Assembly: GCA_008632985.1 (NCBI GenBank)
Contig: QPGO01000007.1
Coordinates: 62,001-126,000, forward strand
Origin: Psammoneis japonica
Taxonomy: Eukaryota
Length of the DNA stretch: 64,000 nucleotides
Direction of reading: 5' to 3'
Each line of letters begins with the position of its first letter. Within the stretch, counting starts at the first letter, position 1. Of this stretch, positions 3,500 through 58,099 are shown one piece after another. Under the pieces are notes generated by a model. It was not told the origin of the DNA. It searched no databases and was given only the letters and a program-made list of their open reading frames with translations. The position numbers were made by a program, and so were the translations under genes.

Positions 3500-4289
3500 C
3501 ACGTCTTTGGCTTTTTAAACAGAAGATTAAGGGAGCCCATGTAGAGCGGAAGGGAACAGCAGAGGGAGGCACAGAGGTGGCTGTAGAGACGGCAGAGAAG
3601 AAGGGTCGAAGGACGCAAGACGAAGGGCGTTTTGAGGAAGGTGTGGGTGAGGAGGGAGCAGGGAGAGAGGAAGTGAATCAGAGGATGTGCGTAGAAAGGT
3701 GAAGAACGACGTTGCAGCCAAGAGTTTGGGTGGCCCACTGGGATGGGGTGGCTGTGCGGCAGGTGCTCCCAAAGCGATCGGCAGACAGGCGATGCCATGC
3801 GAAATCAGCAGAGGGAAGGATTGCAGACGGAGACGACAAAGCACAGAGGAAGGCGGAGCAGGAGGCATCGGAGTGACGAAAGTCAGAGGAAGAGGACCAG
3901 GGTGGCTTGGGCTGAGAGCAGACGGAGGAGGATGTAGAGCCAAAGAGCAAGCGGTGAGCAAAGTGGCCGAGACCACCAAGGTGATCTACAGTGAAGGGGA
4001 GCAGGAAGATGCCATTGTTGTCAAGCGAAGAAACAACAAGGGATCCATCGGCAGAGGAAGTGGAGGGGCCAAGAAACTTCAATCTCGCGCTCGAGTGGTG
4101 TGCCTCAGTTGAGGCAGGAGAAGAGGGGGCAGGCAGACCTGGAGGAGGGCGAGAGGAAGCTTGAGGGACGGCAACGTCCACTGCAATGTAGTGATGGTGG
4201 GAGGGAGCGGAAAGGGAGGCGGGAGGGGGAATTAAAATGCCGACATCGGCGGGACGGAGGAGCGGGCGGGTGGGGAGCAGGTTGGTGGG
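3500..4289 (-). mobile_element. CRE-like non-LTR retrotransposon, 3' fragment (restriction-like endonuclease domain and 3' UTR)
   Basis: Reads LRPADVGIL...IAVDVAV...LLPFTVDHLGGLG (RLE-type RPAD and DV motifs). Joins the 11395-11741 fragment across the GTGGG TSD (VHLEP|TNLLP). Confidence 0.75.
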
Positions 4290-4565
4290 TGATGGAAATT
4301 GAAGGCAAATGGCAAGAATTCAAACAACAACTCCTTGCTGCTGTCTAAATGGCAGATGAGTCTCCGCTCAGAGACCGTTGCAGGAGCCGAAAGACGTGCA
4401 AGTCGGTACAATCGGGCTACTGTTGTCATTCTTGTGAGCCTTGTGGCTCGAAAGCAAACTACATCGCGCGCGAACGCGCGGAACTAAAGCACACAAAACT
4501 GTGCGCGGTAAACTAAACAGCGCGCGACACTTCGCGCGCATCCAAATCCTGTTCAAATCCTGTCA
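4290..4565 (-). repeat. 3' LTR of copia copy 1
   Basis: 276-bp direct repeat present four times in the window. Confidence 0.95.
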
Positions 4566-7500: not shown

Positions 7501-10176
7501 CGTCTCAGTGCCGTAGACGTCAGTGACGGTAGACTCGGTGCCAACAAACAGTTGGGCGCTGGTGCAACCAGAGTCGACGGCCGGGGTGTCGGCACAAACG
7601 GTGTCAGTGGCGACAGGCTCGTTGCGGCGGTGCACATTAAGGGCGGGGTTGGGTGATTTGCAGGCCTTGCGAAGGTGTGTGCCGGCGGGCATGCGGGCGC
7701 ACTGCGTGGTGCAGTCAAAAGTACGACGGACCGCATCGGCAGGTAGGAAGCCAAAGCAAGGCCGAAGAGACTCGAAGGGGGGGTCCTTGGGCTGTACAGT
7801 GCGCTCCGGAGGTGGAACGTCATCGCCCTTGGGGTCAATCGCATGCAGATGACACTCGTAGAACACGTCGTCGTTCGGAATGAGGTGATCATCGAGGGCG
7901 GACGCGTGATTGGCAGACAAGGAAGTGGACAAGATGGTCTCGTTGACAATGACACAGTGACGGCAGTTGCCGCATTCGTCAAATGGGTTGGCAGTGGGAT
8001 CGTCCTGCAGGTCAGAGATCGCGTCGCACCACTGGTCGTCGTCAGTGACAGAGTGATCGAGGACGGAAGGGTCCCATGTGTCATCACCGGTGAGGATGAC
8101 ATGGGGCAGGGTGTCCCATTCGACGTCAGTGCAAGGGCGCATGGCAACACAAGGCAGGCCAGCCTTGATGTCAATGGGGATGACACAGCCATCAGGAGTG
8201 GCAACACGTTGCAAGCCGTTGGGCACCTTGACAGAGCGATCGTTGACATCCTGTTTGTGCCATTCGAGCTGGCCGCAGGAATGGATGGTCTTGCCCTTGC
8301 CCGTGCATGCGTGCTGATGGAGGATGGCGATGACGGGACCATGCTGGGTCTCAATGACGGCACCAGCGGTGACAATGGGGATGTCCACCAATTGATGATC
8401 GTCAATGCCCTGAACGTCGACTTGGCGAGAGGTGCGTGCAATGACGCGAACGTCGTCGCCAGCAATGCCGCCGTTGGCCCCACGGTCGACTAGAGCGCCA
8501 GTGCGTGTGGAGCGATGAGCAGAGGCAGAGCAAATGACATTGTGGTTGTCAACGCGGCGGTGAGTGCGGCCGTTAAGTTCTGTGTCATCTGCAGAAGCTG
8601 GCGGGGTAGAGGAAGCGGCGGATGGCCCCGGTCGACTGGCATTGGGGGCTTGGTTAGGAGACAACAGACGTTGCAGATCACCGGGTGGCAGTGGCTTGCG
8701 CTTGGTGAGGTGCGCCTGGATGGGATTGTCCGAAGTGGCGTCCACATGTGGAGCGGAGTCACCACAGTCAGCGGGAGTCGTGTTGGACAAGTTGACATCA
8801 CCGTCACTCCCAAGGTGTTGGTCGTGAAGGTTGGCCGTAACAGACTCATGGCAGTTGCTGGCTCGCGGGTTGCGGGGAGGCGGACGAGAATGCTCAAGGA
8901 TGATCGCCTTGGAGGAATCGGGCAACGAATCCCAGAGCCGTTGGTGGTCGGGAGGGAGACGTCTCCATTGGACACCGGTGAGGCTGGGACCGCGGGTGTG
9001 GGCAGCATTGGCTTGAAGGACGTCAACGTCGCTGTCAATGTCGTAGAACACATCGTCGGACGGGTCCTGGACGTCGTGTGCGCATGTGGCGCGTCGGGGA
9101 GCTCGAGGTGTCGTCTTGGGTTGAAACGTGCTGTCGCACTGAGCTGCCGCGGAGAGGAGCAAGCCACAGCATTGATCGCATGTGAGGCTCTTGCCACTCT
9201 GCGTACGATGCTGATCAGCTTGGTTCTTGACAGCACGGAGTTCCTCGACAGGGTGCACGGCATTCTCGAGCATGACGCGCTTCTGTCCTTCAGAGAAGTG
9301 GTCGCTGGCGGGGATGAGTGCCTCACACTTGCGCAACTGATCTTGCCAATGAAGGATGAACCCGTGGGTCGGACCTTTCCAAGTGCCATCACCAAGACGT
9401 GCGGTGGTGAGGTGCGTGAGCAGGGTGGAGGACTCGACAGATGCGCGGGTGGAGGCAAGCGCGTGCTCAGACAAGGAGCGGCAGACGGTCTGTGCGTCAG
9501 AAGACCCCACATTTTCGTGAATGAGAGCCTTGCCCTTGTCGGTGAGAAGGATGCGTTCGAAGACGGCGAACATGTGCTTTTGCTGTTCAGCAAAGAGCAG
9601 TTTGTCTTCGGGGCTGGTCGGTTTGTACGACGAGTCTAGAATGCACTCGACGTCTTGGGCACGGGCTTGTGCCACAAGTGAGGTGTGCCAAGTGTGCCAC
9701 TGCTTGTCGGATTTGAGAGCCGTGAAAGCGGTGGGATCACGCTTGATGCCTCGCTTGAAGTCTCGCACCGGGTCGCGTGCCTTGGTCGGGTTGGTGACAT
9801 GTGGAGGTGCAAGGGGTGAGCTGCCGATGGACACAGAGGACATGCAGTCCGGGCTGAGGCGGCAGGCAAGGAACTCGTCATGCGTGAACAAAGAGGAGTC
9901 GTTGGCAACGTCAAGACCTTTGTGTGCTTTGACAATGTACAGACTGGCCAGTGCTGCTAACATGTTCTTACAACCACGAGGCAAAGGGATTGCATTGGTG
10001 CCGTTGTCGCACTCAAGCGAGTCGATTTGGGACGGCATGAACGTGAACAGTTCCTGATGCGAGTCCGTGCCGTCTTGGGCCAAAGCCAAACGAAGAGGAC
10101 TCCCAGCACCTTGGGCAAGCACGGTTCCAACAACGTGCTCGAAACCATCGATTTGTTGCTGACGAGTGAGAACCAT
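4513..10176 (-). pseudogene. Copia gag-pol polyprotein, copy 1; in-frame TGA at 5335-5337 (CGA in copy 2) and many Tyr->Cys/His changes
   Basis: LVDRGANGG protease, integrase core (SDRAQ...SEPHQQHQNFAE), RT (KARLVADG, DIGNA, LYGLRSSG, YVDD), RNase H (DNKSV, NPADILSK). Confidence 0.93.
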
Positions 10177-11118
10177 GGTGGACAAAAGTGGTGTCAGGAC
10201 AATCAATTCTGGTTGGAAAGCGAAGGTGGACTCGAAACTTGGGTGACAATAGACTTGACTTGAAATGGACTTGACTTGAAATCTTGAACTGATCTTAAAA
10301 TCAGAAGTCGCCGGGCTTTGTTGCCCCGTTTGTTGTCAAGTGCTAAACTTCCCATCCGGTCCGTAGAGTTGTGCCGGCACGTCCGAACCCGCAGCTGGCG
10401 GCGCTTTGGGTTGCTTGCGAGCGGAGCAGCGGGTTGCAAACCCCTGCAGGCAAGCTGACCAGAGGTGGACAAGACCCCCGAACCGTTCTCATTTTATGTC
10501 GGTTGGATTTCCCGATCAGGCTGGCCAGTTGACGCAGGCGTTGGGCGCTGTGGACGAACGAACAAACGCGGGAAAGCACCCTCGCCCCAACGCAGGCTGT
10601 GATCATGGCTGCTTGCTCTCACAGTCATCCTCGTGGACCCAGCAGAACTGTGGAGCACCAGTGGACCGGGGTAGATCAGGTACAATGGACTCGGTGTGCT
10701 TGTAGAGTGGCAGCAAAACCGCAGTCCGAAGAGTGGGTACAGGTTCTTGGCCGTGAAGATGTGCACATATATGTGTGTGTCTTCAGCGACGAAGATCCTT
10801 GAATATGCAGGGTTCTTGACCGTTAACCGATGAACAGGTATATCAAGGGATGAGGATCAAGGATAGACTTGGATATGACCGTTGAATGTATGTCTTCAGC
10901 GATCAAAGGCAGTATAATCAATCCAGATATCCAGCGGTAAGGAGACTTGACGGTGACGTTAACTTCCTGCCGATGCCCTGGTATTGAATGCGCGTAGACT
11001 TGCCGATGTATGTAGAACATATACGGAGGTCCACGTAGAATTGAAATAGCGTCGTTGGTAAATCAACGACGACGATGGCGGTTGCTCAATGGGTTGACAA
11101 TGAGCAAGACTGTTAATC

Positions 11119-11394
11119 TGATAGAAATTGAAGGCAAATGGCAAGAATTCAAACAACAACTCCTTACTGCTGTCTAAACAGCAGATGAGTCTCCGCTCAG
11201 AGACCGTTGCAGGAGCCGAAAGACGTGCAAGTCGGTGCAATCGGGCTGCTGTTGTTGTTCTTGTGAGCCTTGTGGCTCGAAAGCAAACTACATCGCGCGC
11301 GAACGCGTGGAACTAAAGCACACAAAACTGTGCGCGGTAAACTAAACAGCGCGCGACACTTCGCGCGCATCCAAATCCTGTTCAAATCCTGTCA
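11119..11394 (-). repeat. 5' LTR of copia copy 1
   Basis: 276-bp direct repeat, TG...CA ends. Confidence 0.95.
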
Positions 11395-11741
11395 GTGGGT
11401 TCGAGATGAACGTCATCAGGGGATCGACAGAACTCTGCAAGAGGACCCAAAGTTTGGGCTAGGATGAAAACAGTGTCACGGAGACCATTGGAGAGCTTGG
11501 ACTTGTGAGCACGGTGGCAAGAAAAGGCATGATCACCACAGGCATCCAGGATGGCATGGCCACAGGGACAGGGAGTGTTGACAAGGGACGGAGGAAGGAT
11601 GGGGAGACGAAGCTTGTGAAGGGCGGCAATGACGCAGGCGTCCGAAGAAAGGCGGGAGCTTGGGAAGCGATGGGAGAAGGAATGAAGAGGGAGGCTTGCA
11701 AGCGGAGACAGCAATGAAGGGAGCGAAGATTGCACGTCGCA
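11395..11741 (-). mobile_element. CRE-like non-LTR retrotransposon, middle fragment (CCHC zinc knuckle)
   Basis: HKLRLPIL...CPCG..ILDACGDHAFSC. Reading frame is continuous with both neighbouring fragments once the copia copies are removed. Confidence 0.75.
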
Positions 11742-12017
11742 TGATGGAAATTGAAGGCAAATGGCAAGAATTCAAACAACAACTCCTCACTGCTGTCTAA
11801 ACAGCAGATGAGTCTCCGCTCAGAGACCGTTGCAGGAGCCGAAAGACGTGCAAGTCGGCACAATCGGGCTGCTGTCATTGTTCTTGTGAGCCTTGTGGCT
11901 CGAAAGCAAACTGCATCGCGCGCGAACGCGCGGAACCAAAGCACACAAAACTGTGCGCGGCAAACTAAACAGCGCGCGATGCTTCGCGCACATCCAAATC
12001 CTGTTCAAATCCTGTCA
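11742..12017 (-). repeat. 3' LTR of copia copy 2
   Basis: 276-bp direct repeat; the most TpA-eroded of the four. Confidence 0.95.
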
Positions 12018-15000
12018 CTCCCCAGTTTGCTTGAGGAGCCACAGAAACAGATTCGACTTTGGATGGAATGAAGTTCCAGAACATGAGGGGGCGGAGAAGG
12101 TCCCAGATTTGGGAGCAACCCCAATGCTTGCTGAGAATGTCAGCAGGGTTGCGGGAGCCTTCGATGAAGTGGAACTCAAGGCAACCAGAGGCAATTGCCT
12201 CACGCACACGGTGGAACGACAGTGCGGTGTGTCGCTTGTGCAACTTGGAGTGCGGGATGGTGGCACTGTCTACAACCGACTTGTTGTCACCGAACATGTG
12301 ACTGACGTTGCGGATCGGGACGCCAAGGTGGCGCAGGGTGATGCGCAGGTCGACAATCTGCTCAACACAATTCCTTGCGGCAACAAATTCAGATCCGCAG
12401 GTTGCAGTCTCCATGGTGGCTTGTTTCTTGGAGAACCAATCAGCCGGGAATTTGTTGAGGAAGTGGAGCATTCCCATGACAGAGCGTCCGGTGAGCATGC
12501 AATGGTGCAAGTTTGCATCGACGTAGTGGGTGGCAGTGACGAACTTGCCAAGGGGCGGTGGAGCGTCCTTCGGGATCATCTCTTCTGCTTCACCATGCAC
12601 GGAGTGCATCCATTCATGGGCTGGAGCAGGGAGATCCGAATGGTCGGGCTCTTCCGTGCGAACGCGGAGAGCACCGTGTCACATCTTGGAGAGGCACCCA
12701 CAGATGCGTTTGGCACGATCCAAGTGGCCTTGACGGGGCGCAGCTCGGAAGCCAGAGAGTGACATGACAGCCGTGGTGATGTCAATTCGACCAGGGACAC
12801 TGCCCATTGGAGTGAACCAACAAGAGACTGGAACTTGTGAATGCCATCGGGTCCCAGCAGTTCGGAAGTGTCCAGTTCGGGGTGGTCACCCTTCTCCAGA
12901 GGTGACAGGGCGTTGGTGGCAGGTTTCTCCCCAAACAGTCGGGCGCAGCTGTCGACCATGCGCTCGATGTACTTGCGCGGAGACAGGCACAAGGTTCCGT
13001 CGGGGTCCGGGAAAAGTCGCAACCCAGATGGAACTCAATGGGTCCCGTGCCCTTGAGCTTGAACTTGTGCTTTTCCATGAGAGTGTCGACGAAAGATTGA
13101 GGGTCCTTCATGGCAATGGCGAGGTCATCCACATAAACGGCAATGCATTCACAGTGGTCGCCGTTCCTGCGCATCCAAATGTCGGGCTCGGCGCGGCAGG
13201 GGAAGAAGCCTTCAGCTCACAGGCAGTCGGCGAAGCGCTCGTGCCAGCGGAGACCGGAGCTGTGCAGTCCACACAGTGCCTTGTGGATGACAAGGATGTG
13301 TCCTTCGAGTTTGCCAAATTCGGGTCCAGCTACAATGTAAAGCTTCTCCTTGGTGGTGGCCTCAAGGCAGGCATTGCCAATGTCGGTGGCCCATGTCTCC
13401 AGCTCGTTGAGTTCGGCCAGGAAAATCATCAGCCGAAGGCCACGGAGGGAGACTGCTCCGGAGTAGACACTGTCGACAGGTGCGTCCGTGAGGTGCCCGT
13501 CGGCTACGAGTCGTGCCTTGTGGCGACCGTCGTGTTTCACGTCGCACACCAGGTGCACTCGGATCTTCTTGTGTCCCGCAGGAGGAGTGGAAGACTTGAA
13601 GGGCCCGCAGTCATGGAAGACTTCGTATTCGTCGAGTTGGTCCATCTCGAGATTAGTTGCGTCTCCCCACTTGCGGTTGCCGTTGCGTTCGTCTAGTGAC
13701 ATGGCGTGTTTGTAGTTCCGGGGAACTTCGCATCCGCACTTGCAGCGAGGTGCAGTGCGGAAGGAGCGAAGCTTGGCTTGGTTGGCCATGCGAAATAGCT
13801 TCTTTTGGCGCCTCGCGACAGTGCGGAACCGCTTCCAGCCATCCGTGTCGAGGAGTCCGTTCTCTCGTGCATAGATGGCACAGGTGATGGGGTCGTCCTT
13901 GGCGATGATGGCAAGAGGCTCGGACGTGATCTCCCCACTTTCCCATTCAAGCATGATGTTGTAGCTTGAGCCTTTCCAGGTTGGGTCGTGAGGCTTCAGA
14001 GGTCCTTCGTGTGACACGATGCGTCGAAATTTCCAGACAGTGGTGTCTTCGTCGTCTTGCTCAATGTGATTCATGATGTCATTGCAGGCAAGGACTTCCT
14101 CGTATTCGTCATTGTTGACAGAGCAGACGAACTTAGTGAGCTCGGGATTGCCGTTCACTTTCCATTCATGGTCTTCGACGGCCTTGACGATGCGAGCTCT
14201 GTGGCGTTGTCCGTCCTCTTGTGGCTGCATGAGGAAGGTGCGTCCAATGATGTCTTGCGGATCGAAAACTGGCATCTTGGGTGTCCTGATCTCCCCATCA
14301 GGAGAATCGACGGGGTTGTCGTCATGGCGAGATTTGATGATGGGTTCAGGTGGCTCCCCATCAGGAGGATCAAGACGCAGGTTTCGAACGGCAGGATCGG
14401 GGTTAGCGGAGCGAACGTTGGACCGGCAGAGGATCTTTTGAGTCTCGTCAGATGGGATCTTGAAGGTCATCTGGTGGCCGACGTGCTCAGCAATGCCAAC
14501 GAAGCGTCCACGCAACTCACGGGATTCGGACGGCCAATCGGAGTCATCGAGGTGGAAGCACACTGGTTCCCACCAGTGAAAGCGAAGCAATGGGCTGATG
14601 TCCGGGGTGGATCCAGTGAGAGTCTCGAGGGGCGTGCGCCAGTGGAGACGTGGGGACGCTGTGTGGTTGAGCATGAAGCACACGCACATGAGCGCCAGCA
14701 GCCATGTGTGGGCGGGCGAACCAAAACGGTCCATGACAGTGTTCGCCATGCGCTTCACGGTCTGGTGTCGACGCTCGGCAAAGTTTTGGTGTTGCTGGTG
14801 AGGCTCACTTTGCCAGCTGGAGATGAAGAGGGCGCGAGGATCCCGAGCACTTTGTTGCTGATCTCAACTTGAGCACGGTCGCTAATGAGTTTGGATGGGG
14901 CACCACGTTCACGGATCTGATCCTCGAGTGTGTTGACAAACTCTTTGTCCGTCTCAGTGCCGCAGACGTCAGTGACGGTAGACTCGGTGCCAACAAACAG

Positions 15001-17625
15001 TTGGGCGCTGGTGCAACCAGAGTCGACGGCCGGGGTGTCGGCATGAACGGTGTCAGTGGCGATGGGCTCGTTGCGGCGGTGCACATTAAGGGCGGGGTTG
15101 GGTGATTTGTGGGCCTTGCGAAGGTGTGCACCGGCGGGCATGCGGGCGCACTGCGTGGTGCAGTCAAAAGTGCGACGGACCGCATCGGCAGGCAGGAAGC
15201 CGAAGCAAGGCCGAAGAGACTCGAAGGGGGGGTCCTTGGGCTGTACAGTGCGCTCCGGAGGTGGAACGTCATCGCCCTGGGGGCCAATCGCATGCAGATG
15301 ACACTCGTAGAACACGTCGTCATTCGGAATGAGGTGATCATCGAGGGCGGACGCGTGATCAGCAGACAAGGAAGCGGACAAGATGGTCTCGTTGACAACG
15401 ACACGGTGACGGCAGTTGCCGCATTCGTCAAACAGGTTGGCAGTGGGATCGTCCTGCAGGTCAGAGATCGCGTCGTGCCACTGGTCGTCGTCAGTGACAG
15501 AGTGATCGAGGACGGAAGGGTCCCATGTGTCATCACCGGTGAGGATGACATGGGGCAGGGTGTCCCATTCGACGTCAGTGCAAGGGCGCATGGCAACATG
15601 AGGCAGGCCAGCCTTGATGTCAATGGGGATGACACAGCCATCAGGAGTGGCAATGCGTTGCAAGCCGTTGGGCACCTTGACAGAGCGATCGTTGACATCC
15701 TGTTTGTGCCATTCGAGCTGGCCGCAGGAGTGGATGGTCTTGCCCTTGCCCGTGCACGTGTGCTGATGGAGGATGGCGATGACGGGACCACGCTGGGTCT
15801 CAATGATGGCACCAGCGGTGACAATGGGGATGTCCACCAATTGATGATTGTCAATGCCCTGAACGTCGACTTGGCAAGAGGTGCGTGCAATGACGCGAAC
15901 ATCGTCGCCAGCAATGCCGCCGTTGGCCCCACGGTCGACTAGAGCGCCAGTGCGTGTGGAGCGATGAGCAGAGGCAGAGCAAATGACATTGTGGTTGTTG
16001 ACGCGGCGGCAAGTGCGGCCGTTAAGTTCCATGTCATCTGCAGAAGCTGGCAGGGTAGAGGAAGCGGCGGATGGCCCCGGTCGACTGGCATTGGGGGCTT
16101 GGCCAGGAGACAACAGACGTTGCAGATCACCGGGTGGCAGTGGCTTGCGCTTGGTGAGGTGCGCCAGGATGGGATTGTCCGAAGTGGCGTCCACATGTGG
16201 AGCAGAGTCACCACAGTCAGCGGGAGTCGTGTTGGACAAGTTGACATCACCGTCACTCCCAAGGTGTTGGTCGTGAAGGTTGGCCGCAACAGACTCATGC
16301 CAGTTGCTGGCTCGCGGGTTGCGGGGAGGCGGACGAGAATGCTCAAGGATGATCGCCTTGGAGGAATCGGGCAACGAATCCCAGAGCCGTTGGTGGTCGG
16401 GAGGGAGACGTCTCCATTGGACACCGGTGAGGCTGGGACCGCGGGTGCAGGCAGCATTGGCTTGAAGGACGTCAACGTCGCTGTCAATGTCGTAGAACAC
16501 ATCGTCGGACAGGTCCTGGACGTCGTGTGCGCATGTGGCGCGTCGGGGAGCTCGAGGTGTCGTCTTGGGTTGAAACGTGCTGTCGCACTGAGCTGCCGCG
16601 GAGAGGAGCAAGCCACAGCATTGATCGCATGTGAGGCTCTTGCCACTCTGCGTGCGATGCTGATCAGCTTGGTTCTTGACAGCACGGAGTTCCTCGACAG
16701 GGTGCACGGCATTCTTGAGCATGACGCGCTTCTGTCCTTCAGAGAAGTGGTCGCTGGCGGGGATGAGTGCCTCGCACTTGCGCAACTGATCTTGCCAATG
16801 AAGGATGAACCCGTGGGTCGGACCTTTCCAAGTGCCATCACCAAGACGTGCGGTGGTGAGGTGCGTGAGCAGGGTGGAGGACTCGACAGATGCGCGGGTG
16901 GAGGCAAGCGCGCACTCAGACAAGGAGCGGCAGACGGTCTGTGCGTCAGAAGACCCCACATTTTCACGAATGAGAGCCTTGCCCTTGTCGGTGAGAAGGA
17001 TGCGTTCGAAGACGGCGAACATGTGCTTTTGCTGTTCAGCAAAGAGCAGTTTGTCTTCGGGGCTGGTCGGTTTGTACGACGAGTCTAGAATGCACTCGAC
17101 GTCTTGGGCACGGGCTTGTGCCACAAGTGAGGTGTGCCAAGTGTGCTGCTGCTTGTCAGATTTGAGAGCCGTGAAAGCGGTGGGATCACGCTTGATGCCT
17201 CGCTTGAAGTCTCGCACCGGGTCGCGTGCCTTGGTCGGGTTGGTGACATGTGGAGGTGCAAGGGGTGAGCTGCCGATGGACACAGAGGACATGTGGTCCG
17301 GGCTGAGGCGGCAGGCAAGGAACTCGTCATGCGTGAACAAAGAGGAGTCGTTGGCAACGTCAAGACCTTTGTGTGCTTTGACAATGTACAGACCAGCTGG
17401 TGCTGCCAACATGTTCTTACAACCACGAGGCAAAGGGATTGCATCAGTGCCGTTGTCGTGCTCAAGCGAGTCGATTTGGGACGGTGTGAACGTGAACAGT
17501 TCCTGACACGAGTCCATGCCGTCTTGGGCCAAAGCCAAACGAAGAGGACTCCCAGCACCTTGGGCAAGCACGGTTCCAACAACGTGCTCGAAACCATTGA
17601 TTTGTTGCTGACGAGTGAGAACCAT
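11965..17625 (-). pseudogene. Copia gag-pol polyprotein, copy 2; 1-bp deletions (~14836, ~13007, ~12792), nonsense codons and Tyr->Cys/His changes
   Basis: Same domains as copy 1, split over ORFs 14755-17655, 13217-14758, 12782-13174, 12576-13022 and 11965-12609. Confidence 0.9.
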
Positions 17626-18567
17626 GGCAGACAAAAGTGGTGTCAGGACAATCAATTCTGGTTGGAAAGCGAAGGTAGACTCGAAACTTGGGTGACAACA
17701 GACTTGACTTGAAATGGACTTGACTTGAAATCTTGAACTGTCTTGAAATCAGAAGTCGCCGGGCTTTGTCACCCCGTTCGTTGTTGAGTGCTAAACTTCC
17801 TGTCCGGTCCGTAGAGTTGTGCCGGCACGTCCGAACCCGCAGCTGGCGGCGCTTTGGGTTGCTCACGAGCGGAGCAGCGGGTTGTAAACCCCTGCAGGTA
17901 AGCTGACCCAGAGGTGGACAAGACCCCCGAGCCGTTCTCATTTTATGTCGGTTGGATTTCCCGATCAGGCTGGCCAGTTGACGCAGGCGTTGGGCGCTGT
18001 GGACGAACGAACAAACGCGGGAAAGCACCCTCGCCCCAACGCAGGCTGCAATCACGGCTGCTTGCTCTCACAGTCATCCTCGTGGACCTGGCAGAACTGT
18101 GGAGCACCAGCAGACCGGGGTAGATCAGGTGCAATGGACTCGGTGTGCTTGCAGAGTGGCAGCAAAACCGCAGTCCGAAGAGTGGGTGCAGGTTCTTGGC
18201 CGTGAAGATGTGCGCATGTGTGCACATGTCTTCAGCGACGAAGATCCTTGAATGTGCAGGGTTCTTGACCGTTGGCCGATGAACGGGTGTGTCAAGGGAT
18301 GAGGATCAAGGACAGACTTGGATGTGACCGTTGAATGCATGTCTTCAGCGATCAAAGGTGGTGTGATCAATCCAGATGTCCAGCGGTAAGGAGACTTGAC
18401 GGTGACGTTAACTTCCTGCCGATGCCCTGGCCATTGAATGCGCGTAGACTTGCCGATGTATGTAGAACATATACGGAGGTCCACGTAGAATTGAAACAGC
18501 GTCGTTGGTAAATCAACGACGACGATGGCGGTTGCTCAATGGGTTGACAATGAGCAAGACTGTAATC

Positions 18568-18843
18568 TGACAGAAATTGAAGGCAAATGGCAAGAATTCA
18601 AACAATAACTCCTTACTGCTGTCTAAATAGCAGATGAGTCTCCGCTCAGAGACCGTTACAGGAGCCGAAAGACGTGTAAGTCGGTATAATCGGGCTACTG
18701 TTATTATTCTTGTGAGCCTTGTGGCTCGAAAGCAAACTACATCGCGCGCGAACGCGCGGAACTAAAGCACACAAAACTGTGCGCGGTAAACTAAACAGCG
18801 CGCGATACTTCGCGCGCATCCAAATCCTGTTCAAATCCTGTCA
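18568..18843 (-). repeat. 5' LTR of copia copy 2
   Basis: 276-bp direct repeat; retains 16 of the 17 TpA sites seen across the four LTRs. Confidence 0.95.
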
Positions 18844-28966: not shown

Positions 28967-30224
28967 GGTGTGAATGGACTATGAAACGTCTTTGACAGTC
29001 GGCTTCCCTTGGCCATTGGTCTCTCGTTTCGCGTTCGTTTTGTGTCTTCAAGTTTTGCCGATTGATTTTGGCGAACACGATGACGTCTGTTCGTAGGATC
29101 CTCGTAGAATAGACACAGATATTATCGTACATTTATGGATAAGTATAAAAAAGTAGTGGGTGCGTGGCGTGGAGCGCGCACTCGGAGTGTCACCTCATCT
29201 GTCTGTCGGTCATTCCTCCGAAAAGGTGGTAGGTACCATAGGAGTACGTTTTATTTTGGGACCACCTGCCTCGCTCTGGTCCGCTCTAGTAGCTAGTTAG
29301 TGGCGCCGTACTCAGCCTCAAGATTGCTTGTTCTTCTCCAGCCAAAACGTTTTTCTGATTGAAGACTCGATGACCCTCCTCATCGATGGCTTCAAAAACG
29401 GTCGAGTCAATCCGCTCACAGTGTTCGCGGATTTGCTGATTGAATGATGTTGGCTTTTGTCAGTTTTTGATTGAGCCTCTCTTTAAAGAGGGCACCCCAG
29501 AAAAGCAAACCAGTGGAAACTAGTGATAAAATGCGCCACCCTGGCCATGACGAGTTCTCCTGGACAAAGGAAAGTAACGAAGCAACCATGGTCCACAAGA
29601 CATGCTTGTCAAGTCCCACGTGAGCCGCGAGAAAGCAGCAGAATTTCCAACTGCAATGGCCGCAAAAAATAAGCCCCGATCCTTTAAATCATGACTAATT
29701 ACAATCATACCAACAATCAGAACCATTGAACACAACGCCAGCCCGGTGCTCTGTCCTGTGATTCCCTTTCGCCTCAGTGTCATCCCAAAAGCACTCAATT
29801 GAACAACTGCGAGTGCAGCAAGCTGAACACTCATATGGTTGGATAATAAAAGACAATTTGTATTGGCATGAAACTGTGTCGAAGACATGAGATAAAGCAG
29901 TTGCGGTGGTCCTTTCAGATCTCGTATTGTCCGGCTTGATTCACCTCTTCTTTTAAAGTGCGCTGTCACAGTGTCAGCGGCAAGCATTGTTGCAAGGACC
30001 ACAGTATATGCTGGCAAAGGTGACCATAACAAGAAAGAAATAGATTTTGCTTTATTGCCTTGAGGCACAATGGGGTGGCGTTTTCGAAGCCACGCCAAGA
30101 GCAGAAGCAGGTGGCATCTCCCACAAAAGACAAGCGCGTGAAATCGATGCTCATTCCATGTTCGACTTCCGTCGGGGTGCCTTTTCTTTGGAAGCTGAAA
30201 GAACAATCCGGTGAGTTGTAGTAG

Positions 30225-30515
30225 TGCCGAATGTCACGGTCATCTATATTCATTCGTGTGTTCATTCGTGGGTGTCAACCTGGTGTCAAAAGTGTCAAAA
30301 GGATGTCAACGATGACACTTTCTAGAAACCTCTTCTCCTTTCTCGATGCATCTCGATGCCTCTCGAAAGATTGTTTCTTTACATTTCTACGCGGTTTCTT
30401 AGCATTAATTCTACGAGATTTCGGAGTAGCCGAATCTCTTTCATTTCTTCTCACAATGTTGGCAACAGTCAACTTTACAACGCTACTTTATACTATTACT
30501 TGGCGCCACTTGGCA
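30225..30515 (+). repeat. Gypsy 5' LTR
   Basis: Direct repeat of 34834-35124 with 8 substitutions. Confidence 0.95.
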
Positions 30516-30588
30516 TAGTAAATTTACTCCCAAACACTTGTTCATCTCTCTTGAGACACATCTACCGATCATGTTGTCCTGACCAGAC

Positions 30589-33500
30589 ATGTCAGCAGAA
30601 AACTGCCCATTCGAACTTAAGCGTCCTGACCGCTCTGAGGAAGAGCGGCGCAAAGACCAATTCGTGTCTTTTGAAAGCCCCATTGATCCTGACGATCCAG
30701 ATGGGCTTAAAATTACGATCGAGGTGCGTAAGTTAGCTTCAACTGAACCGGAAGATGTTCTTACCTTCTGGTCAAACTTCGATGAACTTATCAACGATCT
30801 CGGTACGGCTGAAGGACAGCCACGTTTCCGGCTCGTGACCAGACTTATGACCGGAACACCAAAAGACGACTGGGAAATCGTCGTAGACGATTACGAAAAC
30901 CGCGACCAAGTTACATTCGACACTTGTCGTGAAGAATTTCTACTCCAATACATGGATAGAGAAATTGCCCTTGACACTAAGGAATGGCTTCAAAGCCTTA
31001 AGAAACCCAGGAACCAAACTGTCAAGTCATTTGTTAATGACATCCGTCGCTTTAATAAGTTGATTAATGTCATGCCTACGCCAACCGAACATGACGCCGA
31101 AAGAGTTCCGTCATTCACGGAAGCGGAATTATCCGTAATCCTTCGAAAATGTGGACCAAGATCATGGGCCGAAACTCAGACTAAAGCCCGTCTTCGCAAC
31201 TTAAACTTGAACGACCAAGCTCAACACTACGAGACTCTCCGACGTGTGGAACGACGTGGTGGCAAAGGGTCTACCGACAACAACAGACGCAACAACAATG
31301 GGAATCAACGCAACAACGGTCGACACACGCGTCACGGCCAGAATAACGACCAAAATCGCGATGCCAGGAACAGGAATCAAAACAATCGTGAACAAACATG
31401 TCCAATCCATGGCGTTGTACATCCGAACGGTCAAGAGTGCAATGTCATCCGTCGTGAACGTGAAAATTATGAGCGGAACCGCGCAAATCGGAATGCGCCG
31501 AATCAACAAAATAACTCTCGAAACGAGCCGACACACCGCTATCCTACACGGAGCCGCACACGGAACGTCGAAAACAACAATGTGGACTCCAAAGCTAGTC
31601 GCTCCGCTTCTAACGATGTCGATAGCGTCGCGTCAGATGATGTCAACGATATTTTTGAAGACGTCACGTCTCTTCTAGACGATTCCATCGAATCCGAAGT
31701 AGAAGACAATCTTACCACGGAAGCGCGTGTCCAGATGATTGACACTCATTCTGGAATGCACAAGTTCCGTGTTGCTCTACTCGACACCGGCGCAAATCGC
31801 AATTTTGTGAAGCGCTCAGCCCTTCGCGGGATTCCTCACAAAATCCGTAAATGTAACGTTCCCGTTAAAGGCCGTTACAGTGCCGTTAATCTACACGAGA
31901 TTGCGACGCTGACATTGAAGTTCCCAGACTTCGCATCGTCCAAGAAGGTTTCCGTCGATGCTTGTGTGGAAGACAAAGCCGCAGGAAAACACGATGTTGT
32001 CATCGGAAGAAAAACCGCCACAGAAATGGGACTCGTTTTTGATTTTCGACATCAAACAATCACGTGGGGCGATGTTGCCCTATCCATGCGATCCAAGGGC
32101 TCTTTCGACCAAGTCGAAGTTAATGCAATTCATCCCGGCGATGCTGAATTACCCAAGTTCTTCCAGAATGCCGTCAACCGTCAGGTTCGAGGTATGACGA
32201 GCAATGCGTACGACAAGCACAATTATCGCGACATGGTTCTACGCTGCAAACACCTTGATGACGATCAACAGCACCAACTCATCGAACTCTTCGGACGATA
32301 CCCGCAATTATTCGATGGCACACTTGGAGCTGTACCCGGTAAACCTGTCCATTTGACCCTGAAACCAGGATCGCGTCCATGCTGTGCGAAAGCTTACACC
32401 ATTCCGCAAGCGTTATATCCCATGGCTCGCAAAGAAGTGGATGAATTGGAAAAAATCGATGTTATTACGCGCAAACTTCACTCTCCTTGGGGCGCACCCT
32501 GTCTTTTCCGATCAAAGAAAAGCGGTGGTATCCGTTTCTTATCCGATTTACGGAAACTCAACGAGTGTCTCGAACGGCATCCATGTCCACCACCTATTAT
32601 CGACGACGTCGTATGGAAAATGAACGGCTTTACCTGTGCGACATGTTTGGACCTCAACCGAGGCTACTGTCACTTCGTGCTTGACGACGAGTCAAAAAAA
32701 CTCTGCGGTGTCATCCTGCCGTGGGGCAAGTATTGCCACAACCGCCTACCGCAAGGAATCAAACCGGCAAGCGATATTTTTCAAGCTTGCATGACAGATG
32801 TTTTTCATGATGTGGAAGACATCATGGTCTACATCGACAATGTCATCCTCTTTACCAAGAACAACTTCAACCATCACTGTCAACGACTCGAACTCGTCTT
32901 GCAACGGCTCCTCGCGAACAATCTTCACGCACATGTCGAAGAATCCTATCTCGCCGCCAAGACCGTCGACTACTTAGGCTGTGCCATGACTGCAAAAGGC
33001 ATTCAGCCTCAGAAAAAGAAAATCCTACCCTTGCTTCGCTTCGCTCGCCCTCAAAACCGTCGACAATTACGTGGTTTCATCGGGTTCGTGAATTATTACA
33101 AGAAATTGTGGCACCGACGCAGCCACACTCTTACGCCCTTAACTGCGCTGTCATCAGACAAAGTCAAATTCAAGTGGACTGACGTCCACACGGAAGCTTT
33201 CAATCAGATGAAAAAAATTGTGGCGCGCGAAATCCTCCTCCGATTCCCCGACTTCTCTCAACCTTTCAACATCTATCCGGATGCGAGTGATTGTCAACTT
33301 GGTGCAGTAATTACTCAAGATTTTGACGATGGCGAATGGCCAATTGCATTCCACAGCCGAAAATTGTCTCAAGCGCAACGAAACTACACGACAATGAAAA
33401 AAGAGCTGCTGTCGCTCGTGGAAACGACCGAAAATTTCAAAAGCATCCTTTTTGGTCATCGATGCTACCTATTTGCCGATCACAAAAATCTTACATTTGA

Positions 33501-34812
33501 CAAATTCAAGTCAGAACGCGTCAAACGCTGGTGTTTGCTTCTCGAGGAATGCGATTGCTCTTTCGAGTGCCCACCAGGCCACAAGAATGTCGTGGCTGAT
33601 TTTTTGAGTCGCTGTCCCATTGTCCAAGTCGATCAAAGCGATTACGAGGAAATGACTTCGTTGGAAATCGATCCTTCAATATTCCCCGTTACTTTCGACA
33701 TCATCGCCGACCATCAGAAAAAAGATTCTGCTCTTCAGCAACGACTCGACAAGTCCGAATCCCACTCAGCCGAACTGTTCAACGGAAAACAGATTATCCT
33801 TTACAAGAACAAGATTGTCCTCCCTCCAACGCTTTTTCCTGCAGTTCTACGGTGGTGCCATGAAACTCTCTGCCATCCTGGTGCTGATCGCACCTGCCAA
33901 ACTTTGGCTTCACATTTTTACATTCGCGACACACAGATGAAAGTCCGTACTTTTGTCCGTAAGTGCCGCACGTGTTCCAAATCCAAGTGCACTACGGCAA
34001 ACTATGGCGAATTACCTCTTCCAGATACTACTTATAAACCTTGGCAGGCAACTCAAGTCGATCTTTTCGGTCCCTGGACGTATGCCGACAAAAATGGTGT
34101 CGATCGCAAAATCAGAGCCGTTTCAATTATTGATGTCGCAACCCGTTGGGTCGAACTCGCGAACTATAAGTTCAAAACGTCCGAAGACATTTCACTTATC
34201 GTCGATCGCGAGTGGTTTTGTCGCTATCCGCGACCAGAAATTGTCATTTATGACAACGGTTCCGAATTCACTTCCGAGTTTACAGATCTCCTCTACAGTT
34301 ATGGTGTTAAACCGAAACCTACAACAATCAAGAATCCTCAAGCCAACGCGTTCGTTGAACGTATTCATCAAGTGATAGCCGATTCTCTCCGTGCGATGGA
34401 TCTCCCTTCTCACGATCATGATGAAGACACAATTCATGGAATTTTGCAATCCGTTGCATGGGCCTTGCGCAGTACCTACCATACTGCCCTTATGTCGTCT
34501 CCCGGACAAATTGTCTTCGGTCGAGACATGGTCATTTCTGCTACTTATCTTGCGAACTGGAAAATGATTAATACCCGTCGCAAGCGCGATGTCCTACGCA
34601 ATAATCTCCGCGAAAACGCAAAACGTCTTACTTACGACTACAACATCGGCGATCAAGTCTTCGTTATGACCAAAGACATCCAACGCAAACTCAACACCAA
34701 AGATGGTCCTTTCCGTATCGTACGTGTCCATACCAATGGAACCGTTACCATCCAGCGCTCGCCTCACGTCACTGAACGTATCAATATCCGCCGTCTTCAC
34801 CCTGTCTTCTAA
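30589..34812 (+). CDS. Gypsy gag-pol polyprotein (open, but with Tyr->Cys/His changes in RT and RNase H)
   Basis: LLDTGA protease, RT (DLRKLN, RLPQG, YIDN), RNase H (DASD, DHKNL, ADFLSR), integrase HHCC plus DNGSEF...ER and a GPF module. Confidence 0.93.
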   Translation: MSAENCPFELKRPDRSEEERRKDQFVSFESPIDPDDPDGLKITIEVRKLASTEPEDVLTFWSNFDELINDLGTAEGQPRFRLVTRLMTGTPKDDWEIVVDDYENRDQVTFDTCREEFLLQYMDREIALDTKEWLQSLKKPRNQTVKSFVNDIRRFNKLINVMPTPTEHDAERVPSFTEAELSVILRKCGPRSWAETQTKARLRNLNLNDQAQHYETLRRVERRGGKGSTDNNRRNNNGNQRNNGRHTRHGQNNDQNRDARNRNQNNREQTCPIHGVVHPNGQECNVIRRERENYERNRANRNAPNQQNNSRNEPTHRYPTRSRTRNVENNNVDSKASRSASNDVDSVASDDVNDIFEDVTSLLDDSIESEVEDNLTTEARVQMIDTHSGMHKFRVALLDTGANRNFVKRSALRGIPHKIRKCNVPVKGRYSAVNLHEIATLTLKFPDFASSKKVSVDACVEDKAAGKHDVVIGRKTATEMGLVFDFRHQTITWGDVALSMRSKGSFDQVEVNAIHPGDAELPKFFQNAVNRQVRGMTSNAYDKHNYRDMVLRCKHLDDDQQHQLIELFGRYPQLFDGTLGAVPGKPVHLTLKPGSRPCCAKAYTIPQALYPMARKEVDELEKIDVITRKLHSPWGAPCLFRSKKSGGIRFLSDLRKLNECLERHPCPPPIIDDVVWKMNGFTCATCLDLNRGYCHFVLDDESKKLCGVILPWGKYCHNRLPQGIKPASDIFQACMTDVFHDVEDIMVYIDNVILFTKNNFNHHCQRLELVLQRLLANNLHAHVEESYLAAKTVDYLGCAMTAKGIQPQKKKILPLLRFARPQNRRQLRGFIGFVNYYKKLWHRRSHTLTPLTALSSDKVKFKWTDVHTEAFNQMKKIVAREILLRFPDFSQPFNIYPDASDCQLGAVITQDFDDGEWPIAFHSRKLSQAQRNYTTMKKELLSLVETTENFKSILFGHRCYLFADHKNLTFDKFKSERVKRWCLLLEECDCSFECPPGHKNVVADFLSRCPIVQVDQSDYEEMTSLEIDPSIFPVTFDIIADHQKKDSALQQRLDKSESHSAELFNGKQIILYKNKIVLPPTLFPAVLRWCHETLCHPGADRTCQTLASHFYIRDTQMKVRTFVRKCRTCSKSKCTTANYGELPLPDTTYKPWQATQVDLFGPWTYADKNGVDRKIRAVSIIDVATRWVELANYKFKTSEDISLIVDREWFCRYPRPEIVIYDNGSEFTSEFTDLLYSYGVKPKPTTIKNPQANAFVERIHQVIADSLRAMDLPSHDHDEDTIHGILQSVAWALRSTYHTALMSSPGQIVFGRDMVISATYLANWKMINTRRKRDVLRNNLRENAKRLTYDYNIGDQVFVMTKDIQRKLNTKDGPFRIVRVHTNGTVTIQRSPHVTERINIRRLHPVF

Positions 34813-34833
34813 CGTCTCAATTGGGGAAGCGAG

Positions 34834-35124
34834 TGCCGAATATCACGGTCATCTATATTCATTCGTATATTCATTCGTGGGTGTCAACCTGGTGTCAAAA
34901 GTGTCAAAAGGATGTCAACGATGACACTTTCTAGAAACCTCTTCTCCTTTCTCGATACATCTCGATGCCTCTCGAAAGATTGTTTCTTTATATTTCTACG
35001 CGGTTTCTTAGTATTAATTCTACGAGATTTCGGAGTAGCCGAATCTCTTTCATTTCTTCTCACAATATTAGCAACAGTCAACTTTACAACGCTACTTTAT
35101 ACTATTACTTGGCGCCACTTGGCA
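34834..35124 (+). repeat. Gypsy 3' LTR
   Basis: Direct repeat of 30225-30515. Confidence 0.95.
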
Positions 35125-35686
35125 AGTAGTATATGCGGGGCAAACAGAGCAACACTCTTTGCCGATTCATCAAAGCACATATCCTTAGATGCATCGACAC
35201 CAAAGAACTCGTAGTACCGGTACAAAAAGTGACACAACACAAACGCTCCGAGCAGCGCATGGACTCTGTGAAACCACCATTCTTTGTTGGACGGTAATTT
35301 ACTGGACGAGGTTATCAAAGCTCGGGGCATTCTGCATCCAGGACGAAAACAACACCATGGCGATCAATCGCAGGAAAAGTTCAATAAAAGATCGGCGGAG
35401 CGAGGTGCTGAAAGTTTGATCTTCACGAACCAATGTTTTATAGTTTATCTTTATGGTGTTGCATCTTATTGTAAGGTTATTACTCTGAATATTACAAAAT
35501 ATTCGCATACTCTAGAGAGAGGAACTTTCATACAATAAATTCCAATCGCGCGTCTCGCCCCAAATCAAAAATGGTGAAGTCAACGGCGTACCGGTACTTC
35601 GACTCCTCTAAAGGCTCTCTTCGTACATGAGATAATCCCGAGAACAACGCGCCATACATAAGCAAGGGGAAAAACTTGGGGAGAAA

Positions 35687-56332: not shown

Positions 56333-56629
56333 GGTCAGTCATCATGTTTCACGTTTTGTGGGTTGTGCTTTTTCTCCCCTATTTGTGTCGCTCGGCTCGA
56401 GGTCGCGAGGTCTGCAAGATCCAAACAAAATCTTCTGAATCTTTTGATTGATCCACGATCCACGCGAGAGACAAATCTTTCATTCCTTTCCGAATGCAAA
56501 AATCACCGATCGCAAGATGCGAACACTTTCGTTTCGTCGTTAACATCTTTGAAATGCTTTGGGGTGTATGAAAACAGCCACACACTTATTGATCAGGCGT
56601 CATCTTATCAGCTACAATCTTGGTAGAAC

Positions 56630-57130
56630 ATGTGGAGCTTCAATCCGGTCGTCTACATTCAGCATGCTTGGAACGGGACCAAAACCAAATGGGGCAAAGC
56701 GAGTCTCATTCTATTCTACACATTCATTTGGTTGAGCATTCTCTCAAGCATATGGTCTTTGTTTGATCCAGAGTCTCAGGGATCGGGCTGCATCTTTGCG
56801 GATGCAGAGTCTAATGAGAAAGAGTCTCTACGACTTCTATTCAGAAGCGCCAGTCTCTTTGTCATTGGATTCCTTCTCTATGCAGACAAAGGGGGTTTGC
56901 ATTCCTGGAACGTTGCCATGGTCACCTTCTTCTTTCTGTCGTTCTTTTGGTTGTGGAGCAGTTATGCAGCCTCTTCTTCCACCACCGCTGCTTGTGGAGC
57001 CGTTTGGAGTAATGCGTCAATGTGCATCATGATTGCGTGGCTCGTGGGTGCTTTGGTGACGATTCTTTTGGAGGAAAAGCTTGGTGGTGAAAACGGAACA
57101 GAAGAAGAGCGTCAGAGTCTCAACGTCTAG
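56630..57130 (+). CDS. Hypothetical 4-TM membrane protein
   Basis: 166-aa ORF with four hydrophobic segments. Confidence 0.7.
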   Translation: MWSFNPVVYIQHAWNGTKTKWGKASLILFYTFIWLSILSSIWSLFDPESQGSGCIFADAESNEKESLRLLFRSASLFVIGFLLYADKGGLHSWNVAMVTFFFLSFFWLWSSYAASSSTTAACGAVWSNASMCIMIAWLVGALVTILLEEKLGGENGTEEERQSLNV

Positions 57131-58099
57131 TTATGGTAGGTGAACTTCGAAAGCAGAAACGATGCTATTAGAGTCAACGAGTCGTTAAGTAAACGCTTTG
57201 ACTATGGATCGCTCTGACACTGATCCACTGCTGTACTGCAGTCCACTCTCAAGATACCCAGCAACATGCGTTCTACCTAGTTGCTATTTACTCTAAGAAC
57301 GTCAGCATTTGAAGCATTTGAACTAGAAACGAAGGAAAAAATGCTGTGATGAACGCACATGAGCAAAATTATCACGCTGGTTGAGAAGTTCAGTGCTCAA
57401 TCTTTTTGCTCGAGGAAACTAGACAGACTGACCCAGTGGACGACACCTCAACATTCCACATCCATTTCAAAGCATTTTTCCAGAGCCTTTAGTATGTACG
57501 GGTTTCGATGCGTCGCAATGGAGCGGATTATACATACCTTAGCATATAAATTACAACTTGCCGGATTGGGCTAAGCATTTGCTTAGGGCACGCTTACATT
57601 TAACAACTTTTCCATCGTTGGATGCAGAGCTACTAGCTTGAAGCTCTCTAGTAGAGAGGGCCTACTGTGCTCTAGCTAGAGAGGTAGGGCTAGTAGGGGA
57701 GAAGCAGATCTTCTCGCAATTTGTATCTTTAGAGTCTCTTTTGTTTTCATTACGTATCTTCTAGCCTCTGTGCTATTTGCAACCTCAAAAGAAAGAGGAT
57801 CCTCACTTCGTTCTCTAAACGGATATCGTTTTCTGACTGATACTTTCGGATGAATTCAACGGACTTATTGGCTTTTTCCGTGCTTCAGAAGTAGGTAGCA
57901 AAGCGGTGCTGCCTCCCTCTTCCAATAGCTCTTTCTTTTTTTTGCTATTTTGTGGTGGCATGGCTTCTGAGCTACAATATAAGAAGTGTATAATGTGGTG
58001 TGCCTGTACTAGACAGTCGCACTATAAAAAACAAGGGCTGGCCTCATTATCCTACGGTTGCAGTCACGCCCCCGGCCGTGACATTGTTGTGTAACAGCG

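Follow-up and report, generated by a model that had tools for sequence, protein, structure and literature searches.

Loss of TpA from one long terminal repeat of a diatom Ty3/gypsy element as a likely early trace of hypermutation in transposon-bearing chromosomal domains

Background

Context-biased hypermutation directed against mobile elements is known in several forms. In the repeat-induced point mutation (RIP) of ascomycete fungi, C:G pairs are changed to T:A, mainly at CpA to give TpA, in a homology-dependent manner, and the products are AT-rich, carry an excess of TpA and acquire new stop codons. In the retroelement editing of animals, APOBEC3 converts C to U on minus-strand cDNA and ADAR converts A to I on double-stranded RNA. 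The tRNA-type deaminases TadA and ADAT2, the first of which is the source of adenine base editors, have as their natural substrate A34, which follows the invariant U33, and the bacterial TadA reads U-A-C. Here we analyse a stretch of 64,000 nucleotides from the pennate diatom Psammoneis japonica (contig QPGO01000007.1, positions 62,001 to 126,000 of the forward strand; the whole stretch is hereafter the window, and all positions are counted from its first letter), in which the two long terminal repeats (LTRs) of a Ty3/gypsy element at 30225-35124 differ at eight places, always between TA and TG or CA. We regard these eight differences as probably the early trace of a DNA-level hypermutation at TpA that acts after integration in this diatom.

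The closest described system comes from the chlorarachniophyte (rhizarian) alga Bigelowiella natans, in which, according to the main text of a recent preprint (Mettrop et al., 2026 preprint, bioRxiv 10.64898/2026.01.13.699255), mutation-accumulation lines acquired 231 new mutations within two viral integrations. With few exceptions these were A>G or T>C, every AT>GC mutation lay at TpA, and the hypermutation was confined to some of the lines. One of the two target regions, derived from a nucleocytoplasmic large DNA virus (NCLDV), is described there as single-copy and transcriptionally silent, the TpA-poor coding sequences of the genome as enriched in reverse transcriptase (RT) and DDE domains, and an ADAT2-like deaminase is proposed as the agent. 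The same main text contains nothing on a preference at the +1 position, on LTRs, on flanks or on diatoms, and its supplements may hold context data; full-text literature searches for a prior report from a diatom or any other organism matched this preprint only.

The window shares with the B. natans system, as the main text of the preprint presents it, a spectrum consisting almost only of A>G and T>C, restricted to TpA and falling on both strands, a regional action in foreign or mobile DNA next to host DNA that evolves normally, and a long-term depletion of TpA accompanied by a gain of CA+TG, with RT and DDE transposase sequences among the TpA-poor ones. The patchiness in the window, where one LTR is hit and its partner is not, would be compatible with the very high, episodic rate of new mutation in B. 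natans. The two cases differ in that the host here is a stramenopile, in that LTR retrotransposons, a DNA-transposon remnant and unnamed repeats take the place of the giant-virus and virophage inserts reported there, in that comparative evidence (LTR pairs, paralogues, protein outgroups and alleles) stands in place of the de novo mutations observed there, and in that one domain of the window (58-64 kb) has its CpG erased too. Judged from these sequence comparisons, the finding is best read as belonging to the kind described in B. natans; new are the host lineage, the target classes, a preference for 5'-TAY (Y, pyrimidine), the evidence for a domain-like targeting and the co-occurring erasure of CpG.

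The likeness to the other systems is more partial. With RIP the window shares context-specific transitions that disable mobile elements and leak into unique DNA, and even the same pairs of TA against TG/CA. In the window, however, TA appears to go to TG/CA, the products are GC-richer, TpA-poor and without new stops, and one repeat member is spared while unique DNA is hit, with no sign of homology sensing. APOBEC3 and ADAR likewise produce deaminase-type, context-biased hypermutation against retroelements, and ADAR prefers U or T before the edited A, but theirs is a pre-integration process that affects one strand and reaches both LTRs, whereas the process here would be post-integration, affect both strands and extend into flanking DNA. 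A preference for T-A-Y on DNA might suit an active site of the TadA/ADAT2 type, and ADAT2 is the candidate named for B. natans.

Results and discussion

The LTR pair of the gypsy element

A direct-repeat search with alignment delineated two LTRs of 291 bp each with the termini TG...CA, the 5' LTR at 30225..30515 and the 3' LTR at 34834..35124 (both on the plus strand). The insertion is bounded by a perfect 5-bp target-site duplication, AGTAG, found in identical form at 30220..30224 and 35125..35129 (plus strand). Between the LTRs lies an open frame of 1407 amino acids (30589..34812, plus strand), in which Pfam recognises RT, RNase H, integrase zinc-binding and integrase core domains. Because the RT, RNase H and integrase domains occur in one open frame between LTRs, the element at 30225-35124 is assigned to Ty3/gypsy.

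The two LTRs show exactly eight differences and no insertion or deletion. At each of the eight sites the 3' LTR has TA, and the 5' LTR has TG in six cases and CA in two: the G/A differences (5'/3') are located at 30233/34842, 30258/34867, 30260/34869, 30348/34957, 30458/35067 and 30461/35070, and the C/T differences at 30382/34991 and 30403/35012. The 5' LTR thereby has 15 TpA (rho 0.63) against 23 in the 3' LTR (rho 0.87), eight of the latter being affected, and the divergence of 2.7% contains no substitution outside TpA. Both LTRs hold 15 CpG, with none lost. Decay of 5-methylcytosine at CpG was considered as a cause of the differences and rejected, given these intact CpGs and a CpG rho of 1.37 across the element.

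These differences are real and far from chance. An exchange between TA and TG/CA can be reached by transition at 26.5% of LTR positions, so that eight out of eight would arise with P = 2.4e-5 if only transitions are allowed and about 9e-7 with a two-thirds share of transitions; the placement of all eight on one LTR side has a chance P of 0.008. A preliminary description of the stretch had reported the six TG and two CA differences with CpG untouched, and these counts are confirmed here. Its summary as TpA losses lying wholly in the 5' LTR is sound for the LTR pattern itself and too narrow for the element, since the open reading frame (ORF) has also lost 6/18 conserved tyrosines (below). It had further supposed that the insertion was young, and had seen the same spectrum in an unrelated element; the first supposition agrees with the lack of any non-TpA difference between the LTRs, and the second holds for the copia pair of the window.

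The age of the insertion could be approached through three coded public runs of one sample, whose contigs carry parts of the stretch; for run X3 no contig was placed, which is no sign of absence. Contigs of the runs X1 (11.4 kb) and X2 join position 30219 directly to 35125, skipping 4905 nucleotides and keeping a single copy of the duplication. Because this empty-site allele is present, the insertion is young or polymorphic. Depth rises from about 60 in the flanks to about 1300-2800 inside the element, which indicates that the gypsy family is multi-copy. The family variants relative to the window copy are transitions in 328 of 351 cases, with A>G and T>C together at 197 places and G>A and C>T at 131.

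Direction of change in the copia pair

An alignment of two LTRs has an inherent ambiguity: loss of TpA in the 5' LTR and gain of TpA in the 3' LTR look identical. Direction requires outside evidence, because a RIP-like change from CpA to TpA is the mirror image of TA>TG/CA in a pairwise alignment. Two Ty1/copia copies in the first part of the window, 97% alike, offer such evidence. E1 (4290..11394, minus strand; RVT_2) is bounded by the duplication GTGGG/GTGGG and has an internal TpA rho of 0.25 and an open frame of 1623 amino acids (5335..10206, minus strand). E2 (11742..18843, minus strand) is bounded by TCGCA/TCGTA, a duplication that itself shows a TA/CA difference. Each having its own target duplication, the two are independent insertions. 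The E2 frame (13217-17655, minus strand) has a single break, at about 14755-14758, where two long frames meet. GC skew on the plus strand is +0.11 to +0.20 across 2001-18000 and about 0 in host DNA.

The alignment of E1 with E2 contains 204 differences. Transitions account for 201 of them, and 196 fall in pyrimidine-purine (Y-R) dinucleotides. These Y-R pairs comprise TG/CA (48), TA/CA (33), TA/TG (26), CG/CA (22) and CG/TG (19), and an origin from TA is involved in 107 of the 148 differing Y-R sites. Taken alone, the pattern is mirror-symmetric: a C>T series CG>TG/CA>TA would look the same as an A>G series TA>TG/CA>CG. Composition points one way: the copia copies have TpA observed/expected ratios of 0.27 and 0.20, a CpG ratio of 0.93 and 56% GC, against a host background of 47% GC and TpA ratios of 0.58-0.61, and since they are both TpA-poor and GC-rich relative to this background they are the opposite of a C>T product.

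The four copia LTRs provide a second line of evidence. Six sites have TA in both insertions and TG or CA in other copies, five sites show all three states, four are ambiguous under parsimony (three copies with CA/TG and one with TA), and two are CpG>TpG/CpA singletons. Parsimony on these LTRs alone is not relied on, as hypermutation is expected to produce parallel hits. The E2 pair repeats the one-sidedness of the gypsy LTRs, with 14 sites that have TA in its 5' LTR (18568-18843, minus strand; 16 TpA, rho 0.86) and TG/CA in its 3' LTR (11742-12017, minus strand; 2 TpA) and none reversed; the three copies other than the E2 5' LTR have 2-7 TpA each.

The polarity of the copia changes comes most directly from protein outgroups. 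The E1 protein, read through with X at stops, was aligned with the first 45 of 120 relatives listed that have 1780-1960 amino acids, the listed relatives being 46-61% identical. With conservation set at 80% or above, 624 columns qualified, and E1 deviates in 65 of them. Where tyrosine (Tyr) is conserved and an E1 residue is present (34 columns), E1 has Cys in 17, His in 5, Phe in 3 and Tyr in 9; that is, 22/34 Tyr have become Cys or His, with the codons TGC, TGT or CAC. In the reverse sense, 0/23 conserved His and 0/4 conserved Cys have become Tyr. The relatives, each compared with the rest, average 0.36 Tyr-to-His and 0.02 Tyr-to-Cys replacements, with a maximum of 3/43. On these outgroups the copia direction is TA>TG/CA, because Tyr was lost in E1 and none gained while the relatives lie near zero.

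Polarity at the gypsy locus

The same reasoning was applied to the gypsy polyprotein, aligned with the first 50 of 120 relatives listed. Six of its 18 conserved Tyr codons now encode His or Cys (CAC, TGT or TGC; nucleotides 31990, 32668, 32737, 32980, 33352 and 33856), as against one of 12 conserved His or Cys residues that has become Tyr. No relative among the 50 has lost more than 1/18, which gives a binomial P of about 9e-8 for the window copy; a looser column rule yields 7/20 conserved Tyr lost. No change is seen in the final four conserved Tyr codons (34003-34639). As the lost residues belong to motifs of RT, RNase H and integrase that are strongly conserved, the open frame of this copy is probably not functional. 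At one further conserved Tyr, 34225, the window copy has TAT and all four covering contigs of X1 have CAT, so other gypsy copies have also changed at conserved Tyr codons.

For the LTRs themselves, an independent contig of the run X2 is informative. It has 3.6 times the unique depth and consists of an LTR followed by letters of the element leader, which makes it the 5' LTR of one of the copies; it was placed on the 3' LTR of the window with nine differences. As the X2 run has two A>G places in total, one of which (34887) is non-diagnostic, this 5' LTR must, by counting, have A at no fewer than four of the five assessable diagnostic A sites. A search of metagenome contigs with the gypsy polyprotein for an outgroup LTR matched 29 pattern stretches, none of which was confirmed. 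The protein outgroups, taken together with the A kept in the X2 5' LTR, make it most likely that the 5' LTR of the window is the derived, converted copy and the 3' LTR the unconverted one.

The preliminary description had taken the LTR differences as losses of TpA, and wherever an outgroup could polarise the change (copia LTRs, copia and gypsy proteins, and a third repeat family described below) the direction is indeed a loss. By these comparisons TA is being lost in three sequence sets other than the LTR pair, namely copia, the gypsy ORF and the third family.

Chromosomal domains rather than repeat copies

Mapping of TpA along the window in 1-kb steps separates transposon-bearing domains, with TpA rho of 0.02-0.45, from the host genes at 19-56 kb, with about 0.5-0.9. 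The first kilobase (rho 0.07) contains the remnant of a DDE_Tnp_4 transposase (335-868, minus strand) and opens a contiguous depleted domain (1..18400; 1-kb rho 0.04-0.45) that spans this remnant, E1, the spacer between the copia copies and E2. Its right edge is sharp, near 18.4 kb and inside E2, rho being 0.55 at 18-19 kb, and because the domain stops there the E2 5' LTR is spared. A second, fully converted old repeat domain occupies 58001..64000, with TpA rho of 0.02-0.23, CpG rho of 0.03-0.56 and CA+TG rho of 1.67-1.94.

The edges of these converted zones do not lie exactly at element ends. They take in the 347-bp spacer between E1 and E2 (11395..11741; one TpA, rho 0.07), which has no match elsewhere in the window, and the unique DNA to the left of the gypsy element, whose depth of about 60 equals that of the right flank. 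Within 29731-30160, and among the 40 places listed out of 356 at which contigs vary from the window (the eight LTR sites are not among these 40), all seven allelic differences are of the TA<->TG/CA kind: the window has TG/CA at 29731, 29758, 30149 and 30160 and TA at 30005, 30007 and 30028. To the right of the element (35125-35700), two contigs agree with the window at every base over 576 and 337 bases. TpA rho along the locus accordingly runs from 0.47 in the left flank (0.43 over 29600-30224) through 0.63 in the 5' LTR and 0.44-0.55 in the ORF to 0.87 in the 3' LTR and 0.71-0.76 in the right flank. The contigs of X1 and X2 also differ from each other at the seven flank sites, which may reflect two or more haplotypes in the sample in addition to that of the window, or contigs that are mosaics of alleles.

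The preliminary description had proposed that repeats, and not chromosomal location, determine where the process acts; this view is not supported by these results. The zones cross element borders, with seven of seven flank differences of the TA<->TG/CA kind on the left and none on the right, and the spacer is converted at rho 0.07 while one of the four copia LTRs is spared at 0.86. The converted zones behave more like chromosomal domains than like repeat copies. The unique DNA seen to be converted consists of the flank and the spacer, neither of them a large single-copy target, and may at most suggest that the target need not be repeated.

Sequence context, the third repeat family and CpG loss

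With each copia event oriented to read the changed base as A, the +1 base is C or T in 48/58 events, compared with 64/156 for the surviving A residues in TpA (p = 1.7e-7), and the -2 and +2 positions show no preference. At copia sites with TAY on one strand only, 27/31 products fall on that strand (p = 3.4e-5). The 5'-TAY context is also found at 7/8 of the gypsy LTR sites and 6/7 of the left-flank sites. It is a preference of rate and no absolute rule.

A third family is saturated with conversions. Relative to a less converted copy at 56600..57482 (plus strand), the diverged paralogues at 59.6-62.9 kb have TG (12) or CA (15) at all 27 aligned TpA of that copy; none is retained, and there is a single reverse case. 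At the CpG sites of the same copy, 17/19 read TG or CA in the paralogues. From 59 kb on CpG rho is 0.03-0.18, and TG and CA make up almost all pyrimidine-purine steps. The decay of CpG to TpG or CpA is therefore found at 58-64 kb as a co-occurring, separate process. CpG is kept in the copia pair (rho about 0.9), high in the gypsy element (1.37) and erased at 58-64 kb, from which the losses of TpA and of CpG seem to be two separate processes that differ in timing or targeting. When the two thresholds of the Bigelowiella study are applied, all six 1-kb windows at 58-64 kb satisfy both; at 1-18 kb, 16/18 satisfy the one for TpA and only four satisfy both.

Proposed mechanism and its alternatives

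The observations can be accommodated by a process in which TpA is turned into TpG or CpA, that is, by A>G on either strand and preferentially at 5'-TAY, the target being the chromosomal domains that bear mobile elements. At the gypsy locus the converted zone would comprise the left flank, the 5' LTR and most of the ORF, sparing the last 1.2 kb or so, the 3' LTR and the right flank; all eight differences would fall in one LTR because the zone ends before the 3' LTR. The older domains (1-18.4 kb and 58-64 kb) would represent the end state, with TpA nearly gone, CA+TG in excess and frames open. The agent is presumably an enzyme, and by analogy with the proposal for B. natans most likely a DNA adenine deaminase of the ADAT2/TadA type, and it might be guided by silent chromatin or a similar regional mark and not by repeat homology. 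Action linked to transcription or coordinated between strands was considered and rejected for want of evidence, the copia A>G changes being 33 in the sense and 26 in the antisense direction; at the gypsy locus, inspection by eye of the order of TG and CA products revealed no clear runs.

Several observations weigh against this account. The Tyr losses of the gypsy ORF may predate the insertion, as changes private to this copy are not separable from family-wide ones, and the polarity of the eight LTR sites is drawn from a counting argument and from other sequences in place of an aligned outgroup LTR. Short words that recur inside the LTR (TGTCA five times and CTCGATGC twice) agree with the G-form of the 5' LTR, which would suit an ancestral G at two of the LTR sites. 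Three of the seven flank sites have TA in the window and TG/CA on the other allele; since the window keeps TA there, the flank changes are not all on the insertion-bearing haplotype. The TAY bias is marginal at the gypsy locus (13/15 against 21/38 unchanged sites, p = 0.055) and weak in the third family (11 against 4, p = 0.12), where eight non-TAY sites were converted as well. Finally, 41 of the copia differences involve CpG, and a second process, CpG decay, looks to be mixed into them.

Among the alternatives, the one least easily set aside is ectopic gene conversion, by which the 5' LTR would have been copied from a more converted member of the family. The family is multi-copy, its other copies carry more G/C (the 197 places against 131), and a single tract would place all eight changes in one LTR. 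The target duplication is intact, however, so there was no crossover, and the unique left flank has four changes of the same type on the window haplotype and a TpA rho of 0.43, for which a donor at another locus cannot account; moreover E2 shows the same one-LTR asymmetry at the edge of a contiguous domain. We therefore consider gene conversion unlikely. A RIP-like process, in which the 5' LTR keeps the ancestral state and eight TpA arose in the 3' LTR by C>T at CpA, is more doubtful still. RID-related DNMT4 genes are said to occur in diatoms, RIP at CpA would produce precisely this pairwise LTR alignment, the copia pattern can equally be read as CG>TG/CA>TA, and the repeated words within the LTR would favour it too. 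Against it stand the asymmetry of Tyr changes (22/34 lost against 0/27 gained in copia, 6/18 against 1/12 in the gypsy ORF), the 27 against 1 of the third family, the copia LTR sites with three states, repeats that are TpA-poor and GC-rich where TpA-rich and AT-rich ones would be expected, a dead frame of 1623 amino acids with no stops created, and the X2 LTR contig with A at four or more of its five assessable sites. For the window as a whole, the comparisons leave the RIP-like alternative largely refuted.

The two remaining alternatives are weaker again. Modified bases at TA (and CG) steps of silenced DNA might have been mis-called in sequencing or assembly, a suggestion prompted by the palindromic nature of both affected steps, which resemble methylation sites. 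Yet independent contigs differ in like manner and in both directions, including places with TA in the window and TG/CA in the contig, and 6 kb with TpA rho of 0.02-0.23 and CpG rho of 0.03-0.56 would need mis-calling of nearly 100%; for B. natans, the main text of the preprint names Illumina sequencing of mutation-accumulation lines as the source of the mutation calls. An artefact of this kind is thus highly improbable. ADAR-like RNA editing, or error of reverse transcription before integration, has in its favour that A>G with U or T at -1 is the ADAR preference, as noted in the Discussion of the same preprint. But reverse transcription builds both LTRs from one template, so that such changes would be shared; both strands are changed (six TG and two CA in the LTR, 33 against 26 in copia); and unique flank DNA is also affected. 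The preliminary description had dismissed this possibility on the grounds of strand, and we likewise give it a negligible probability.

Open frames after conversion

A change of TA to TG/CA removes TAA and TAG and never makes a stop codon, and this is why long open frames persist in dead copia copies. TAA and TAG together number 18.3 per kb in host DNA, 6.3 in E1 and 2.8 at 58-64 kb. E1 thus keeps its frame of 1623 amino acids, with no stop codons created, in spite of the 22 conserved Tyr replaced; because the changed A prefers 5'-TAY, the Tyr codons (TAY) have become mostly Cys. Gene finders would call the open frames of converted copia copies as genes, and open reading frames in converted DNA are no evidence of live genes.

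Wider implications

If the proposed process is correct, a defence described only in 2026, for the viral inserts of one alga, extends to ordinary retrotransposons and to the diatoms, a major group that lends itself to experiment. The system would then be old or repeatedly evolved, and a second host would be available for finding the enzyme. The 5'-TAY motif can be checked in published mutation-accumulation data and against candidate deaminases, and the targeting appears regional and not homology-based. Polymorphic young insertions such as the present one constitute a natural experiment on the speed and reach of conversion. In genomes of this kind LTR divergence would be useless as a clock; here a divergence of 2.7% comes without any ordinary substitution.

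A broader proposal can be made tentatively, and we think it rather less probable than not in its full extent: TpA hypermutation might be a defence common to stramenopiles, alveolates and Rhizaria (SAR) or found more widely still, in which a TAY-preferring adenine deaminase guided by a chromatin mark disables retrotransposons, DNA transposons and viral inserts. Together with CpG decay, such a defence would drive every pyrimidine-purine step to TG/CA and leave open "ghost" frames behind.

Other features of the window

The region of the gypsy insertion is flanked by two intron-free paralogues of GT10 fucosyltransferase, at 22915-25041 (plus strand, 708 amino acids) and 40723-43281 (plus strand, 852 amino acids). 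A host DPH6 gene lies at 48597-51110; its closest named relatives are from raphid pennate diatoms only (Nitzschia, Cylindrotheca, Seminavis and Mayamaea; 44-52% identity), the best unnamed match reaches 67%, and no match to the gene itself was present. Other host genes encode a UCH protease, a Na/Ca exchanger, a BRK-domain protein and a formin-like protein. A tandem array at 51680-53000, with sub-periods of 33/18 nucleotides, a super-period of 84 nucleotides and copies 60-98% alike, lies inside overlapping long frames (51698-52888 on the minus strand and 51801-52931 on the plus strand). It has a GC content of 58%, no Pfam match and a TpA rho of about 1.1, so it is unconverted.

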